Virus record (IMG/VR): IMGVR_UViG_3300046780_000733
DNA from: a virus
Strand: one strand, 5' to 3'
Length of the DNA stretch: 64,000 nucleotides
Shown: in pieces, positions 53 through 56,103 of the stretch
How the letters are laid out: every line of letters starts with the position of its first letter
Numbering within the stretch: the stretch's first letter is position 1
The notes under the pieces: model-generated
Databases searched by the model: none
What the model was told of the DNA's origin: nothing
What the model saw: the letters and a program-made list of their open reading frames with translations, nothing else
Position numbers and translations under genes: made by a program

Positions 53-118
53 CTAGTCCTCGCGCAAGAAAGCCGTTCGCTGTCCCACTTTGAGGGCTGT
101 CTCGGCAACGAGGCGCAT

Positions 119-147
119 AAAAAAGGCCCACCGGAGATCCGATGGGC
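119..147 (-). terminator. Rho-independent terminator closing the moron
   Basis: Minus-strand hairpin GCCCATCGGA/TCCGGTGGGC followed by T6. Confidence 0.8.
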
Positions 148-174
148 ATTGGGAGAGCGAAGAGGATTCGTTTT

Positions 175-687
175 CTATTCGACGGTCATCAGGTGACGCG
201 ATCCGACCTCGCAGTTAGGAAAGACGCCATCTTCGCTGGTGTTCACCATCTGTTCGGTTGCCACGTAGATGCCGACCGAGTATTCCCCAGGTTCCATGTC
301 GGGTATGACCCAGGAGACGTCCTTGGACCAGTGGCCAACGCCCTTGCGGTCGGTGACGTGATCGATCTTGATAAGGGGAATCAGCAGAGTCCCGTCAGAC
401 TCGCCCACGCGAATCCAGACGTCATATTCTCGGGCGTCCGGCACGTGAGGGCTCGTCTCGGGCAGCACCACCTCTATCTTGGCGCGAACTTCGAGGACTC
501 CCGGTGCCCCATAGTTCTGATGGTCGTACACGATGCGCATGTGCGTGTTGTCAGGTCCATGTTGGCCCCTGACTAACTCGACGCGCTTCCCGTCCTGGAA
601 CACCTGGGCGCAAATCGCGGTCGCTCCAATCCAGCCGACGAACGCGCTGATTACGACGACGGCCAGAATCTTGATCGCTTTACTCAT
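175..687 (-). CDS. Exported beta-rich partner protein, module copy 1 (paralog of 54574-55098)
   Basis: GGAGG SD, signal-like N-terminus MSKAIKILAVVVISAFVGW; shares NYGxP..L..R and KI..V.D..G.G.WS.D.SW...M.PG.Y.VGI.V with copy 2. Confidence 0.8.
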   Translation of the reverse strand: MSKAIKILAVVVISAFVGWIGATAICAQVFQDGKRVELVRGQHGPDNTHMRIVYDHQNYGAPGVLEVRAKIEVVLPETSPHVPDAREYDVWIRVGESDGTLLIPLIKIDHVTDRKGVGHWSKDVSWVIPDMEPGEYSVGIYVATEQMVNTSEDGVFPNCEVGSRHLMTVE

Positions 688-743
688 GATCATTCCTCCG
701 AAATTTGTCGTTGATGGTAAAACTCGCGTGCTCCTCCAGGTTA

Positions 744-1274
744 TCACGGAGGCGTTGTGGCCACAACCGTGGTGTCCTGGTCCCAGCCTGAGTAACTCAT
801 CGTGTCCGTGTCAGACCCCGAGTAGTTGTACCCCGTGTAGACTGTGGCGGTCGTCTGATAACTGGTGTTTGCACGGGCCTCGCACGCTCCGCACGTGCCG
901 TAGAACAGCGTGTTGTCGTAGTAATTGCTGCATCCCCAGAAGTCACAACTGAATGTCCCTGGGTTGAGTCCGGAATCGCTGAGGACCGTCCCGAAGCCGT
1001 TGGCTATGATGATTTGCACCCGGAATGCGTACTTTGCAGTCGTACGCATTGCCATGCCGCCGCCGCCGTACATCCTTGCATAGCAAGTCCCCTTCACGTC
1101 GTATGTTCCAGACGCACAACTGCATCCCGTGGGGTAAGTCGGGCCACCGGGGGTCGGATAATACGGGCACACACCGGCCGACGAGCAGTACGTTGCCGTC
1201 GCGCTCGCCGTCATGGACAATAGCGCAACGACAGCCAAACCAAGCCTTCTCATCATGATCGTCCAATCTTTCAT
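744..1274 (-). CDS. Secreted Cys/Gly/Tyr/Thr-rich protein, module copy 1 (paralog of 55142-55612)
   Basis: Sec signal RRLGLAVVALLSMTASATA, 9 Cys in mature part, AGGAG SD, own promoter. Confidence 0.8.
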   Translation of the reverse strand: MKDWTIMMRRLGLAVVALLSMTASATATYCSSAGVCPYYPTPGGPTYPTGCSCASGTYDVKGTCYARMYGGGGMAMRTTAKYAFRVQIIIANGFGTVLSDSGLNPGTFSCDFWGCSNYYDNTLFYGTCGACEARANTSYQTTATVYTGYNYSGSDTDTMSYSGWDQDTTVVATTPP

Positions 1275-1348
1275 CTGTCAAATCACTCCTGAAAGGGAGA
1301 AAAACTTCCCTGGACACCAGGCCAAGATCGATTCGCAATCCGAGAACG

Positions 1349-1376
1349 ATTCTAATCCCGAATCACAGGAATGCAA
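1349..1376 (-). promoter_or_regulatory. sigma70-like promoter for the moron
   Basis: TTGCAT-N16-TAGAAT in the terL/moron gap. Confidence 0.6.
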
Positions 1377-1406
1377 GCCCAATCCGAAAGATTTTCACCG
1401 GAAACA

Positions 1407-4964: not shown

Positions 4965-5458
4965 TGAAAGCACCGAAAGAGTTCCCCTTGCCGTGGAAGC
5001 CGTACGACGCGCAAGGAATCCATGATTCACCAGGATACATCGTCGCCTACTGCGATGCGATGCGAAACAGCGAACTTCGCGACTACGCGGTTCACGCAGC
5101 CAACAACTACCCGAGGGCCGTCAAACTCCTTGGAGAGTCGCTCTATATTCTTCAGCACGTCGATATCGTCGGCGAGAAACTCAAGGAAGACATCGTGGCG
5201 TTCCTGAAGGATGTCGGCGACCTTCCGGAAGACGCGAATCCGAAGTTCTTCAGGGCATTTGCAGAGGAGTCTGACCGATATTCGCGCGCCGACATCGAGG
5301 CCATCATTGACACAGTGGTCAAGAAAACGGTCAGCGAGTTCTGGAATCAGCCGATCCAGCCAAACGTAGGAGCCTCACGTCTCATGTTTGACGGGCAACC
5401 GATCACCATGACTCTCTCGACTCAGGAAGTCAACAAGGAGACTGACAAAGATGCCTAA
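4964..5458 (+). CDS. Hypothetical protein
   Basis: AGGAG SD, coupled ORF. Confidence 0.6.
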   Translation: MKAPKEFPLPWKPYDAQGIHDSPGYIVAYCDAMRNSELRDYAVHAANNYPRAVKLLGESLYILQHVDIVGEKLKEDIVAFLKDVGDLPEDANPKFFRAFAEESDRYSRADIEAIIDTVVKKTVSEFWNQPIQPNVGASRLMFDGQPITMTLSTQEVNKETDKDA

Positions 5459-5702
5459 GCCACGTTTCTACTGGCGCAAAGGATGGGGGTACGAAGGCCG
5501 CATGCGGCTTGTTCCGTCGTTCGAGTGCCGATTGGACCGCAGGAAGATTGCCACTGTCCAGCAGGGCGAGAGCCCAGATCAATGGTACTGGTACGGCGGC
5601 GGGTACAACTCGCTCTCCAATGGCGGCAGTTACCAGTCGCTGGAAGACTGCAAGAAGGGCGTGATCGAGGAGTACACGAAGAACCCATGGGAGATATTCT
5701 GA
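5451..5702 (+). CDS. Hypothetical protein
   Basis: AAGGAG SD, overlap coupling. Confidence 0.55.
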   Translation: MPKPRFYWRKGWGYEGRMRLVPSFECRLDRRKIATVQQGESPDQWYWYGGGYNSLSNGGSYQSLEDCKKGVIEEYTKNPWEIF

Positions 5703-5929
5703 TGACCTGCGACCATCACCCTGACGTATTGACTCTAGAGAATGCCCGCAGGCTCGCCTTGAGCACCGGCTGCCAAGAGGGGTCGCTATTGCACCAAAAG
5801 AGGATTCGCGACGCCTACAAAACATTGGCCGGCGGGTGCTACCCTGTGTCGCTGAAACAGTGTCTGGCCGACATGAACGCCGCAATCGCCGCCAGGGAGG
5901 CCAAAGAGTGCAGGCAACTGAATCCATAG
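5702..5929 (+). CDS. Hypothetical protein
   Basis: TGATG coupling. Confidence 0.5.
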   Translation: MTCDHHPDVLTLENARRLALSTGCQEGSLLHQKRIRDAYKTLAGGCYPVSLKQCLADMNAAIAAREAKECRQLNP

Positions 5930-6495
5930 AGGATTTCGCGGAGTCCCGAGGGATCGGGGTCGGGCTCGCTGGACTTGTTGTGGCGGAACTCTGGCTCCGC
6001 AGTCGTCCACCGTTCGTCCCGACCGATGACGAAACACGGGTTCTCGATCGGCACCCTGGGGCCGAATGCCGATACGCCAGCTACTTCTCGAAATACTACG
6101 CTGAGATATGGATAGACTGCCAAGTTGCGTCCAGGGCTCGCACGGAAGCCAAGGCGTGGTCCAAGGCGCTCGCGTGGATCAACGATGCCTGGATGAGAGA
6201 CGAGACGCCTCCAGTGGTCCCACAAGGACCACCCGCGCTCGCGGATACATTGTCAAAGATCGTCGATCCGTCAGCCTCCATGGTTCCGATCAGCGCCAAG
6301 GCCATAGAGGTCCTCCGCGGCCAAAAGCCTATGTCTGCAAGGCAAGTATCTCTTGCACTGTGGGGCACGGTCAGCAAAGCGATGGCGGCTCGCAAAGTTC
6401 TCGGGAAGCTCAGGGCAGACGGACTCGTGTCCAGAGCAGGCGTCAAAGGGAGAGTCCGATGGAGGCTCGCCGATGGGGAAGGATTACACGCGTAG
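5908..6495 (+). CDS. Hypothetical protein with C-terminal winged-helix domain
   Basis: GGAGG SD; MSARQVSLAL...ARKVLGKLRADGLV.R wHTH pattern. Confidence 0.55.
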   Translation: MQATESIEDFAESRGIGVGLAGLVVAELWLRSRPPFVPTDDETRVLDRHPGAECRYASYFSKYYAEIWIDCQVASRARTEAKAWSKALAWINDAWMRDETPPVVPQGPPALADTLSKIVDPSASMVPISAKAIEVLRGQKPMSARQVSLALWGTVSKAMAARKVLGKLRADGLVSRAGVKGRVRWRLADGEGLHA

Positions 6496-6827
6496 GATGT
6501 GCGAATCTCGATTCAAAATCCTGGGGGTCATGGACGCCGCACAGGACATCCAGGACGCCGATCTGTGGGAGTCGATGGCGCAGGCGATGCACGAAGCCCT
6601 CAACGCCTACAAGCCAGGGCCTGCCGAGGTGCCGACGGTCGCAGAGGCCGTTGTTGACATGACCGATCTCGGGGCAATGATGTGGGAGGGAACATGCTTG
6701 TGAACGACCTACGATCGATCGCTGTGCTGATCGGTGGAACCCGGCGGCGTCGCCATTCTTCTCTGCAATCAAAACGGCTCTGGTACGCTCAATATCGACA
6801 GGCGAGATTCGCCAGGAGGATGCTAGG

Positions 6828-7718
6828 ATGATCGAGATTCCTCGAGAAAACACAAGTTACGAACACGTGCTCCGATCCATCTTGGATTACGGCGAGAAGG
6901 TGCCAACCGGCACATTCCTGGAGAAAGAGCAGAGGCAACCGCATGCGATCTCGTTGGTCGGCGTCCAGTTTATCCACGACCTGCGCACTGGGTTCCCGGC
7001 GATCACGACCAAGAAACTCCAGTGGGTCTCGGTGGTCAAGGAACTTCTGTGGTTCCTTCGCGGGGACACCAACATCGGAACCCTCGGATGCGGCATCTGG
7101 AACCAGTGGGCCGACAAGCGTGGAAACGTCGGACCCGTGTACGGATACCAGTGGCGTAGATGGGAGTACGAGGACGGACCGCACGACTACAAGGACTGGG
7201 ACCAGATCGGACGCCTGGTTGATGACCTCAAGAGAGTCCACGAGAACCCATTCGATCGTTCTCGACGCCGGCTGGTTGTCTCGGCCTGGAACGCACCCGA
7301 TGTGCCCAAGATGGGGCTAGCCCCGTGCCACACACTTTGGCAGGTGCTACCCGTAAACGGCCGCCTTGACATGATCTGCCACTGGCGATCCATAGACATG
7401 TTTTTCGGATTCCCTTTTAATCTCGCGAGCTACGCTCTCTTGAACCACATCCTGTGCGAGGTCACAGGATTGACTCCAGGAGTGATCTACATGCACATCG
7501 CCGACTGCCACATCTACGACAACCAGGTCGAGGCGGTCCTAGAGCAGATCGACCGCGAGCCTCTGCCGTGGCCTAACCTGACCGTCTACGGGGCAGTCAA
7601 GAGCCTGGCTCCGGACCTGTCGGTGGACCAGTGCCGTCTCCTTGTGCCAGAGATGTTCGCGTTGAATGACTACCAGCACTACGGGCCGCTGAAATCAGCA
7701 CCGGAGATCGCCGTATGA
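6828..7718 (+). CDS. thyA: Thymidylate synthase
   Basis: TTKK, ELLWFLRGDTN, GPVYGYQWR, SRR, SAWN, LAPCH catalytic Cys, RS.D..FG.PFN.ASY, DCHIY. Confidence 0.97.
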   Translation: MIEIPRENTSYEHVLRSILDYGEKVPTGTFLEKEQRQPHAISLVGVQFIHDLRTGFPAITTKKLQWVSVVKELLWFLRGDTNIGTLGCGIWNQWADKRGNVGPVYGYQWRRWEYEDGPHDYKDWDQIGRLVDDLKRVHENPFDRSRRRLVVSAWNAPDVPKMGLAPCHTLWQVLPVNGRLDMICHWRSIDMFFGFPFNLASYALLNHILCEVTGLTPGVIYMHIADCHIYDNQVEAVLEQIDREPLPWPNLTVYGAVKSLAPDLSVDQCRLLVPEMFALNDYQHYGPLKSAPEIAV

Positions 7719-53461: not shown

Positions 53462-54142
53462 TTAATATTTATAGATGAACGCGATGTTCTTCGAGACGTG
53501 GACGGACTTGACCATGCCTCCCAAGAACATCACAGACGGCGAATCATGGATCGCGTCGATCAACCCAGTGATCAGATTGATAGACGTTTGTTTATTCATG
53601 GCGAGCGCGTGGCCCCCGTAGGCGGGAACGTACGCGGTCCACAGATCCTCAACAACGTAGATTCCTCCCGGGGCGAGCAACGGGAATAGCGTCTCGAAGC
53701 TCACCAGGATGTCCAACTGCACGTGAGATCCATCATCGATGACGATATCGAACGGGCCGCAGCCGTTGTCGATGTCGGCGAGGCACTCGTGGTCGCTCTG
53801 GCTACCCTTGATCGTGGTGATCCTGTCGTCGTCGAGGTGGCTCTTGTCGTGGATGTCGAGGCCGAAGATCTGGCCACTCCTGAAGTAGTCACGCCACACC
53901 TTGATCGAGTCGCCGCCGCGCCAGTCGCTCTCGTAGCCGCCGATCCCGATCTCCAGCAGCCTGAGTGGCTTGTCTCGGAGCGGTGCGAAGTGACGCTCAT
54001 ACTCGTGCTCGAAATGGTGCACGTAGAACTTGTCGGTGCCGTAGTGGGCCATGAGCAGCCCAAGGTCGTGCGGGCCAGGTCCGTCGAGCTTCGGTCGCAC
54101 CTCGGCCAGCATCGACTTGTACTGTTTCTGTTCCGGGGTCAT
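53462..54142 (-). CDS. Sugar O-methyltransferase-like (MycE/TylE-type) class I methyltransferase
   Basis: GTDK...H, LLEIGIGGY, GGDS..VW..YF, FDIVIDDGSH, GGIYVVED..TAY. Confidence 0.85.
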   Translation of the reverse strand: MTPEQKQYKSMLAEVRPKLDGPGPHDLGLLMAHYGTDKFYVHHFEHEYERHFAPLRDKPLRLLEIGIGGYESDWRGGDSIKVWRDYFRSGQIFGLDIHDKSHLDDDRITTIKGSQSDHECLADIDNGCGPFDIVIDDGSHVQLDILVSFETLFPLLAPGGIYVVEDLWTAYVPAYGGHALAMNKQTSINLITGLIDAIHDSPSVMFLGGMVKSVHVSKNIAFIYKY

Positions 54143-54414
54143 CGAATCTCCTCAGCCGCATCCGCAGGTTCGTAAGTGGCCTGGAAAATTTCATCCTTGA
54201 TTGGATACTTTTCGCCTTTGATTCCGGTGATCACCCAGTCGCCAGGAGACACTGCCATCACGCCTTCGAGGGTCTTGATGGACGCGAAATGACCTCCGGG
54301 GTGAAGCCCGGCGAAATCGGGCATCATAAACCCGTATTCAAGCCCATCGATTTTCTTGCCGGCGAACCATTGCTCGGCCTCAATGACGACCGGCTTCTTT
54401 CTAAATTTCGCCAC
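54139..54414 (-). CDS. Conserved phage protein (KKPV.IEA.Q / TLEG / PGDW family)
   Basis: KFRKKPVVIEAEQW, IKTLEG.M..SPGDWVITG.KGE.YP.K..IF..TYE. Confidence 0.85.
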   Translation of the reverse strand: MAKFRKKPVVIEAEQWFAGKKIDGLEYGFMMPDFAGLHPGGHFASIKTLEGVMAVSPGDWVITGIKGEKYPIKDEIFQATYEPADAAEEIR

Positions 54415-54504: not shown

Positions 54505-54539
54505 CAAAAAACCCGCGCCCGATTTGCCGGGCGAGGGTC
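54505..54539 (-). terminator. Rho-independent terminator closing module copy 2
   Basis: ACCCTCGCCCG/CGGGCGCGGGT followed by a T run. Confidence 0.8.
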
Positions 54540-54573: not shown

Positions 54574-55098
54574 TCAGTTGACCTGGATATACTGCTCGAC
54601 CATGGCCAGGTAGTAAGGCGTACGCCCACCGTCGCCGTCACCGCGCGTGAACCGAGGATCGTGAACAGCGATACCCACTTTGTAACGGCCTGGCATCATG
54701 CTTTCTGTCCAGGAGAAGTCTTGAGACCAATATCCCTTGCCGGGAACGTCAACCACGGTCCCAATCTTCTCCATATCCACGAACTTGTTGCCGTACGCGT
54801 CGGCAACAGTCAAAGAGATATCCGCCTGCACTGCCTCAATGGAACCAATCTCGTTGGGGACGCCCACATGGAACGAGCCGCGAATAGATAACTCGGAGGG
54901 CCGTCCATAGTTCGACGGGTCGAGGGTGGCAGCGGAGTGCCAGCCGACGGTGGACAAGAGGAGTTGATCCGCACGCTTGCCGGCAACGGATTTCTTCGCC
55001 CTCCGGTTTTTTGCGTATTGGGCGGCATGAGAACCGATGGCGGCGCCCACGATTGCACCAGCCAGAATCACGATTGCGCATTTGTGGTAAGTCTTGAT
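54574..55098 (-). CDS. Exported partner protein, module copy 2 (apparent ATC start)
   Basis: Paralog of 175-687; AGGAG SD 8 nt before ATC AAG ACT; signal-like N-terminus. Confidence 0.75.
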   Translation of the reverse strand: MKTYHKCAIVILAGAIVGAAIGSHAAQYAKNRRAKKSVAGKRADQLLLSTVGWHSAATLDPSNYGRPSELSIRGSFHVGVPNEIGSIEAVQADISLTVADAYGNKFVDMEKIGTVVDVPGKGYWSQDFSWTESMMPGRYKVGIAVHDPRFTRGDGDGGRTPYYLAMVEQYIQVN

Positions 55099-55141
55099 TG
55101 AACTGACTCCTAAAGGAAGGATTCTCCAGAAACGGGAACAC

Positions 55142-55612
55142 TCAAGACGGGGTTTTCCAAGCGGAGTAAATGGACGCATGGGCCAGGGTTTCCCCTGTTC
55201 CCCCGTAGCCAATTACGTACTCAGACTGATATTGCACCGTATTGACACACGGGCACCCCATGGTGTAGACCGACAGAGAATCAACGAATGGACGACTTGT
55301 GCAGTCATAATAGTTGCAGCTAATTTGAAACTCGTGTTCGCCCGAATCAACCAAGGGAGAGTTGATGTTATTGTAAGACCAAATCCTTACCCTCTGGGAA
55401 ATAAAAGCGCCAGAGCCCGACAAGCCTGCGCCCCAATGGGCCTGTCCAGCTCCCGTCCCGTTGAAATGGCCCGTCGAACAAGAGCCTCCGTTGAACACGA
55501 TGGACGTGTTGGCACCCCCGCAGTATTCCGAAACGCAAGCTGAGACACCGGATACCATGACGGCCAAGGCGAACAACAAGCACAGACCCACGATACCAAA
55601 TTTTCGACTCAT
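55142..55612 (-). CDS. Secreted Cys/Gly-rich protein, module copy 2
   Basis: Signal peptide ending VSAC (possible lipobox); SC.G, RV.I, DSG, SC....C, YQ, YS.W shared with 744-1274. Confidence 0.8.
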   Translation of the reverse strand: MSRKFGIVGLCLLFALAVMVSGVSACVSEYCGGANTSIVFNGGSCSTGHFNGTGAGQAHWGAGLSGSGAFISQRVRIWSYNNINSPLVDSGEHEFQISCNYYDCTSRPFVDSLSVYTMGCPCVNTVQYQSEYVIGYGGTGETLAHASIYSAWKTPS

Positions 55613-55644
55613 GGTCAACGTCTCCCTGGTGGAATTTGTTTTCG

Positions 55645-56103
55645 TCATCGAATCTCCTCATGGTTAATCCACTTCTGACGCGCCACAACGGCAGCATGCT
55701 CGGCATGCTCGTGCGAGGTCGGCGAGACAACCTCGATGGAGTCGTTGCCCCACTTGCAGGCCACGACATTGACCGGATCGCGCACATCGGCCTCCACGCC
55801 CCATCGCTCCAACTCGCCGGACTTCAGGCGGACGTGCACCGCGTAGGTGGGGCCGAGCACGAAGCCCTTGCAGTAGTCGATCGGGTACGGCTTCACCTTG
55901 TAGGTTCGATCCGGATGCCACATGCGGTACTCGTCGGCGACCTTCTCGCCATCTTCCCGCGAAGAGAACAGCCCGAGAAATTCGTAGTCGCCTACCTCGG
56001 CGCGGTGTAGGACGAAAACCGGATTTGATCGCTCGTGCTTCTTGGTCGCCGAGAGTGCTGCCAGGAATCCTACCAGCAACATGCAAACGAAACTGATCTT
56101 CAT
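55645..56103 (-). CDS. Putative secreted protein
   Basis: MKISFVCMLLVGFLAALSA signal-like N-terminus. Confidence 0.55.
   Translation of the reverse strand: MKISFVCMLLVGFLAALSATKKHERSNPVFVLHRAEVGDYEFLGLFSSREDGEKVADEYRMWHPDRTYKVKPYPIDYCKGFVLGPTYAVHVRLKSGELERWGVEADVRDPVNVVACKWGNDSIEVVSPTSHEHAEHAAVVARQKWINHEEIR

Follow-up and report, generated by a model that had tools for sequence, protein, structure and literature searches.

The DNA analysed here, a 64,000-nt stretch referred to below as the window, belongs to a phage contig of 140.8 kb (IMG/VR record IMGVR_UViG_3300046780_000733). Its source, a soil phage, probably infects Planctomycetota. At two places the window carries a pair of small genes, here called A and B, that are tightly linked, share a terminator and, judged by where they recur, are mobile; their products are predicted to act outside the cytoplasm and belong to protein families that have apparently not been described. 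The order A then B, the close spacing and the shared termination are found twice in the phage and three times in planctomycete chromosomes. An original prediction had presented the pair as a duplicated and diverged secreted module, the first copy of which would be a moron downstream of the large terminase gene terL. Both pairs of open reading frames (ORFs) do lie on the minus strand where it placed them.

Two gene pairs in the phage

The features of copy 1 are as follows.

744..1274, minus strand: A1, an ORF for a 176-amino acid (aa), Cys-rich protein, predicted to be exported
175..687, minus strand: B1, 170 aa, with GGAGG 7 nt before the ATG at 687
116..147, minus strand: intrinsic terminator closing module 1 (9-bp stem with 7 GC pairs, 4-nt loop, T run)
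1275..1406, minus strand: 132-nt spacer between terL and A1, with a weak hairpin and promoter-like words

A1 and B1 lie on the same strand, 56 nt apart. The stem of the terminator occupies 147..126 and is followed by CTTTTTT. The upstream neighbour of A1 is terL, identified by a match to Terminase_6N (E 1.9e-6), whose best GenBank relatives are about 30% identical. In the spacer between them, a weak terminator-like hairpin with a T run is present at 1327..1308. A promoter had been proposed at 1349-1376. A sigma-70 consensus scan does not find one there, planctomycete and phage promoters being outside what the scan covers; by eye, the words at 1376..1349 read TTGCAT-16 nt-TAGAAT, that is, a good -10 and a poor -35 with 3 of 6 matches.

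One public gene call for A1 (P0002) starts at an internal Met and yields 109 aa, without the signal peptide and five of the cysteines. A second gene caller returns the full-length form of 176 aa. This longer form is held to be right because the homology with A2 covers residues that precede the internal Met of the shorter call.

The features of copy 2, which lies about 54 kb from copy 1, are listed next, together with the gene directly before it.

55142..55648, minus strand: A2, a 168-aa, Cys-rich paralogue of A1, predicted to be exported
54574..c.55098, minus strand: B2, a paralogue of B1 with an ambiguous start
54506..54533, minus strand: intrinsic terminator closing module 2 and its operon (7-bp stem with 6 GC pairs, T run)
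55645..56103, minus strand: upstream operon partner, 152 aa, starting with a signal or anchor sequence and weakly matched by DUF7336

The likely start of A2 is the ATG at 55648 rather than position 55612. GAGGAG precedes this ATG by 5 nt, and the ATG shares the letters ATGA with the TGA that ends the gene before it; the length of 168 aa agrees with the source gene call, P0035. For B2, within 54574-55212, there are three start candidates: ATC 55098, ATG 55179 and GTG 55071. Alignment of the family sets the typical N-terminus of B at ATC 55098, 8 nt behind AGGAG, while gene callers choose either ATG 55179 (201 aa) or GTG 55071 (165 aa), the latter cutting into the membrane anchor. A2 and B2 are separated by 43 nt, and the stem of the terminator that follows them is at 54533..54516. 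The two terminators of the original prediction are thus both reproduced, each at the end of its pair.

Copy 2 is surrounded by glycosyltransferase and methyltransferase genes. The 152-aa gene begins 1 nt past the stop of a gene for a 650-aa GT-A glycosyltransferase, and its product matches DUF7336 (PF24024) with E 1.3e-4, under the gathering score. Because the ATG of A2 overlaps the upstream stop and the gap to the glycosyltransferase gene is a single nucleotide, copy 2 is best regarded as the tail of a glycosyltransferase operon. The description of the module as an autonomous unit is therefore wrong for this copy, which is translationally coupled to the operon upstream. A third protein predicted to be exported (the 152-aa product) precedes copy 2; copy 1 has no such partner.

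Each of the two modules has its own downstream terminator, as a moron should. Deviant base composition, another mark of a moron, is absent: the GC content is 0.580 in A1 and 0.587 in B1, against 0.571 in the window and 0.592 in terL, and GC at third codon positions is similar too, so that the composition of the module is no different from that of the surrounding phage.

The two copies are related. In BLASTP, A1 and A2 are 28% identical over 111 aa (E 5e-6) and B1 and B2 are 29% identical over 157 aa (E 3e-16), with the genes in the same order in both modules. Since signal peptides can inflate such scores, the A pair was rescored without them: the mature proteins give a local score of 88, against 36.3 +/- 6.8 for shuffled sequences (n=300, z 7.6), and none of the 300 shuffles reaches 88. 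Every pair of gene A and gene B motifs quoted in the original prediction is found in MAFFT alignments. A tblastn search of the window detects two copies each of A and B, and no more.

That the module was duplicated inside the phage is less certain. Maximum-likelihood analysis of 29 B proteins gives a tree that places B1 with P0005, P0007, P0008 and one chromosomal copy (genome G447, contig 23). B2 sits in the opposite half of the tree, close to P0004 and P0009 and with a second chromosomal copy of the same genome (contig 17). The split between B1 and B2 is supported at 70/94, so the two are not sisters in this tree; monophyly of B1 and B2, when forced, is nevertheless not rejected by the approximately unbiased test (p-AU 0.09). 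The branching gives a weak hint that there may be two old B subtypes, both of which would be represented once in the phage and once in G447.

The phage is common in one soil and rhizosphere sequencing campaign. The locus is present in at least 24 soil or rhizosphere metagenome DNA runs, no RNA run being listed. In contigs from four runs, module 1 is unchanged save for one single-nucleotide polymorphism at 454 (C>G), which replaces Pro by Arg in a loop of B1 and is the same as database variant P0040. The sole amino-acid variant of A1 is a Q-to-H change. The allelic diversity that had been envisaged is thus not seen here: A1 and B1 show a single amino-acid change apiece, and at this locus the phage is close to clonal. 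The nearest relatives of terL in IMG/VR, on six contigs (L018-L023), are 27-41% identical, and neither A nor B occurs on these contigs, which are distant and mostly short fragments; the phage itself is absent from the IMG/VR collection searched. A literature search on planctomycete phages turned up nothing relevant to the module.

The A and B proteins

A1 begins with a signal peptide of about 27 aa, made of an n-region with RR, a hydrophobic core and an A-x-A type end. This end reads A-T-Y-C or A-S-A and contains no lipobox. The corresponding end in A2, V-S-A-C, could be either a lipobox or a cleavage site for signal peptidase I. Mature A1 has 9 Cys and consists of S, T, G, N and Y to 52%; in mature A2 the values are 7 Cys and 45%. 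Both mature proteins carry few charges and have C-terminal tails rich in S, T and P.

The original prediction recognised neither family, and database searches bear this out. No relative of A1 or A2 was found in Pfam, PHROGs, NCBIfam, PADLOC, PDB sequences, GenBank phages or the ESM Atlas. Word-based searches of 5.8 billion proteins with A1, an A1+A2 profile and B1 return the window's own proteins only, and the ESM Atlas holds nothing above 0.77 for A1 or for the B1 domain. In 401 Planctomycetota genomes the A profile gives two matches, both at chance level; that in L005 is an alternative frame of another gene. An AlphaFold2 (AF2) model of A1, built from two sequences, has a mean predicted local distance difference test score (pLDDT) of 37 and is unusable.

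More can be said of B. B1 is laid out as a hydrophobic helix (residues ~3-31), a short linker and a beta-sandwich (residues 50-169). Its AF2 model, made with an alignment of 26 sequences, has a pLDDT of 86, rising above 90 in the sandwich domain. An exhaustive profile search with the B domain against 1.84 billion representative proteins gives 30 matches at E <= 0.001. About 28 representatives, of 138-215 aa, are constructed alike. They open with a few basic residues, continue with some 20 hydrophobic ones and a linker, basic in many of them, and carry a single domain of ~125 aa with the motifs N-x-G-x-P-G-x-L, G-x-G-x-W and P-G-x-Y-x-V. The giant proteins that the B profile picks up (P0019, P0023, P0031) share no more with it than a short, generic sandwich motif and were rejected as relatives. 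The P-G-x-Y-x-V strand motif of B can also be matched, over short distances, to the sandwich domains repeated in giant surface proteins.

On which side of the membrane the B domain lies cannot be read from the charges flanking the anchor, whose counts are ambiguous. In one member of the family, P0013, the anchor gives way to a perfect lipobox (I-S-G-C). Because lipobox and anchor are interchanged in this way, the B domain is probably extracytoplasmic.

No Pfam model reaches threshold on any of 26 B members. Among the curated families of Pfam, PHROGs, NCBIfam and PADLOC, the best match is FN3_Tor_3rd, with E 0.052 and 14 bits against a cutoff of 30. A sequence search of the PDB gives chance-level matches only, GenBank phages give none, and two metagenome scans (P0032 and P0005) as well as four IMG/VR scans with B queries return nothing. 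The modelled B domain adopts a generic sandwich fold like those of immunoglobulin (Ig) and fibronectin type III (FN3) domains, and superposes on solved examples. Structure comparison (VIA) gives Z scores of up to 9.2, with a flat list below and no outstanding entry. Ig-, FN3- and prealbumin-like sandwiches have the same fold as the modelled domain, with Z 8.2-9.2 and a root-mean-square deviation of 2.4-2.7 Å over 87-105 residues; the best neighbours are the Ig-like domain of GH2 glycosidases (7rsk, 5t9a, 3fn9), a domain of P. gingivalis Omp28 (2r2c) and FN3 modules. Only 6-15% of the residues are identical to those of B. Foldseek likewise assigns probability 1.0 to many E-set domains, all of them generic, and matches in BFVD are unnamed small phage sandwich proteins only. 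The fold as modelled is a fold class, and it carries no functional information.

A complex prediction for the B1 domain with mature A1 scores 0.09; controls being absent, it is counted neither for nor against an interaction.

Chromosomal loci in Planctomycetota

The B family extends to bacterial chromosomes. A homologue in a Planctomycetota metagenome-assembled genome (locus L001 of genome G001) is 98% identical to P0011. Among 121 genomes of the same order, four contain B, at five places in all. Wider samples, each of 401 genomes, add no further B genome: that of the class yields the same four, and in that of the phylum B occurs in one of the 401.

At three of the five places, an ORF of similar size to A, with a signal peptide and 8-10 Cys, lies upstream of B on the same strand.

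L011 (G447 contig 17), broken gene at 5219-5741: A-like 140-aa, 9-Cys ORF with the signal peptide in another frame; gap of 256 nt; B intact
L012 (G447 contig 23), broken genes at 5191-6324: A-like 172-codon frame with a signal peptide, 8 Cys and one TAG; gap of ~70 nt; B frameshifted
L013 (G411), broken genes at 5872-6946: A-like signal peptide, a frameshift in a G6 run and a 10-Cys, S/T-rich part; gap of 24 nt; B multiply frameshifted

At the fourth place, in G001, an intact B stands alone between a tetratricopeptide repeat gene and a Ser/Thr kinase gene, and at the fifth, in G408, the upstream side of B is cut off by the end of the contig. With the two phage modules included, an A-type ORF thus precedes B at five of the six loci whose upstream side can be read. 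An N-terminus resembling a signal peptide, 6 or more Cys and an S/T/G/N/Y share of 40% or above are seldom combined: of the 391 ORFs with 100-230 aa in the ~190 kb examined, only A1 and A2 have all three. Since no more than these 2 of the 391 background ORFs fit, the fivefold occurrence of an A-type gene upstream of B is not attributable to chance.

Similarity between the A-position proteins of phage and bacteria is another matter. A1 and the A-like protein of L012 match in BLASTP with E 4e-4, signal peptides included. In hhalign, phage A and the bacterial A-like proteins give E 0.033; shuffling gives z of 0-3.2, and hidden Markov models (HMMs) built by leaving one sequence out fail to recover the proteins, while B is recovered at E 1e-8 to 1e-57. 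By these sequence comparisons, the A-position proteins are not demonstrably homologous between phage and bacteria. The proposal that A and B travel as a pair is thus borne out as regards arrangement, A-then-B recurring at three loci of two Planctomycetota genomes, and not as regards descent of the A-position sequences there. A conserved order combined with such unlike sequences suggests either that the A position evolves extremely fast or that it is filled by analogous proteins.

The chromosomal A-like genes are broken in all three cases, and B is intact at three of its five places. The damage consists of frameshifts, one of them in a G6 run and another in an A6 run, and of an in-frame TAG. 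Neighbouring genes (280-837 aa) are intact; they include an epimerase, an ABC-2 permease, a kinase and a leucine-rich repeat protein, as well as a DDE transposase (L012) and a 725-aa serine recombinase (L013). Their integrity favours real decay of the A and B genes over random assembly error, although homopolymer errors are possible. No relative of terL is found near the chromosomal A/B loci.

Two further observations concern these surroundings. In G408, two paralogous genes of ~186 aa lie downstream of B (L007 957-2114, plus strand); their products have an N-terminal anchor and a conserved C-terminal part, and they are unlike the partners of B in the phage. Ser/Thr kinase genes are found 0.2-3.5 kb from B in two genomes (L001 10864-12939 and L011 9927-12437). 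This proximity may be a coincidence, such kinases being abundant in Planctomycetota.

Possible functions of the pair

What kind of function would require such a pair? Our preferred interpretation, put forward tentatively, is that A is a secreted effector and B a membrane-tethered protector. A would be a Sec-exported, disulfide-rich and fast-evolving protein acting on the envelope, either like a bacteriocin or as an otherwise harmful or modifying agent. B would bind A on the outer face of the cytoplasmic membrane and so shield the producing or infected cell. The two non-identical pairs of the phage would be accessory cargo, one inserted after terL and the other ending a glycan-modification operon. 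The chief support comes from the survival of an intact B alone, in G001, or beside a frameshifted A, in contig 17 of G447, as might be expected of a protector that is useful by itself. Also consistent with an effector and its protector are the gene order, the small tethered second protein, the faster evolution of A than of B, the export signals on all A and A-like proteins, the mobile-element neighbours and the presence of two divergent pairs each in the phage and in G447.

Several points weigh against this interpretation. Neither a toxin nor an enzyme nor a pore-forming domain can be recognised in A, whose fold escaped modelling. No release or export gene lies beside it, so that A would remain in the periplasm of a diderm cell. 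Divergence is smaller between the B copies than between the A copies, whereas the two members of a classical toxin/immunity pair usually diverge in step. What a 140-kb phage without shown lysogeny would gain is unclear. Assembly errors could account for the chromosomal frameshifts, and the synteny comprises three loci in two genomes.

A close rival, ranked second and also falling well short of an even chance, is a superinfection-exclusion or envelope-masking cassette, in which A and B would block or alter the receptor or the DNA entry of related phages and the chromosomal copies would be leftovers of earlier mobile elements. Both products are predicted envelope proteins encoded by a phage, and exclusion is known to be brought about by small lipoproteins or membrane-anchored proteins, as with T5 Llp, phi80/N15 Cor, T4 Imm and Sp, and TP-J34 Ltp. 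Copy 1 occupies the classic moron site after terL, with its own terminator; copy 2 shares an operon with a glycosyltransferase and a third exported protein, which points to surface-directed functions; and the chromosomal copies are decaying near mobile-element genes. Known exclusion functions, however, reside in single genes, and neither A nor B matches a PHROG or PADLOC family. Moreover, no prophage related by terL adjoins the chromosomal copies, and the persistence of B alone or beside a broken A would go unexplained. That same persistence speaks against A being a surface subunit, that is, a fast-evolving, disulfide-bonded surface or wall protein for which B serves as anchor or assembly factor: an anchor without its subunit is useless, yet B is intact in G001 and in contig 17 of G447. 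This idea, which we consider unlikely, draws on the composition of A, which is that of extracellular structural proteins rich in beta structure (S/T/G/N/Y at 52% in A1 and 45% in A2, few charges, C-terminal tails with much S, T and P), on B being a lone Ig-like domain with a membrane tether and a basic linker, and on the richness of planctomycete envelopes in cystine-containing proteins. A nevertheless has neither repeats nor a polymerisation motif, and no usher-, sortase- or pilus-type gene is nearby.

It is likewise improbable, and to about the same degree, that A and B are merely exported neighbours that lack any functional link and owe their adjacency to co-transfer. The solo B of G001 would then need no explanation, there is no evidence of physical interaction, and the A-position genes of phage and bacteria are not demonstrably homologous. 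Against this stand the short spacers, the strand and terminator in common and, above all, the recurrence of so rare a kind of gene upstream of B at five of six readable loci. A two-component spanin of the Rz/Rz1 type, acting in lysis, was considered because one protein has an N-terminal anchor and its neighbour a signal peptide, with a possible lipobox in A2 (V-S-A-C). This candidate is most improbable and was rejected. The periplasmic part of B is predicted to be all-beta, with pLDDT above 90, rather than coiled-coil; A1 has no lipobox and A2 is ambiguous in this respect; the gene order is the reverse of Rz then Rz1, with two copies per phage; and the chromosomal copies are outside any terL-related prophage. 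The neighbours in the phage, moreover, are terL, a resolvase, the GT-A glycosyltransferase, methyltransferases and the DUF7336-like protein, with no endolysin or holin among them.

To return to the effector-protector interpretation, a broader version of it can be imagined, although we hold it with less conviction still. The pair would be a mobile conflict module of Planctomycetota and their phages, in which a hypervariable effector is always accompanied by a conserved Ig-like protector; at least two ancient subtypes would exist, one of each per phage or host genome, and orphan immunity would outlive the effector.

An exported accessory cassette of a phage is a kind of element already known. 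What appears to be new, as far as sequence comparison can tell, are the two protein families and the conserved pairing, in which a secreted Cys-rich protein varies while its tethered sandwich partner is conserved. The known envelope morons of phages include genes of the lambda bor/lom type and the exclusion proteins T5 Llp, phi80/N15 Cor and T4 Imm/Sp. Like these, A and B are accessory genes placed between essential phage genes, with their own terminator and with products predicted to be exported to the envelope. Unlike these, they form a two-gene unit, and no sequence or family relationship to the known examples was found. The module also departs from morons in that its GC content (0.58-0.59) matches that of the phage (0.57), in that copy 2 is operonic and in that homologous arrangements occur in host-like chromosomes outside prophages.

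A second group of systems comprises secreted bacteriocins or effectors with a membrane-anchored periplasmic immunity protein, such as colicin M with Cmi, or effectors that act in the periplasm and are paired with immunity proteins bearing a signal peptide. The order of effector then protector, and a small protector tethered, by prediction, at the outer face of the cytoplasmic membrane, would be shared with these systems, as would orphan protectors, several divergent pairs per genome and the association with mobile DNA. The differences are that A contains no known toxin domain, that no release or translocation function is present and that conservation is stronger in B than in A.

Phages of Planctomycetota have hardly been studied, and their hosts have an unusual envelope. 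At ~1.1 kb, the module is a small and readily cloned candidate for a new function in conflict between phage and host, or between cells, at the planctomycete envelope. Even if the function proves mundane, the B family can serve as a searchable marker for fast-evolving A-type proteins that sequence searches miss. Two public gene calls are also corrected, A1 having been cut to 109 aa and B2 started within its membrane anchor. Right after the terminator of module 2, at 54139-54414 on the minus strand, lies a gene for 91 aa that falls in no Pfam family and has its own AGGAG and a GTG start.

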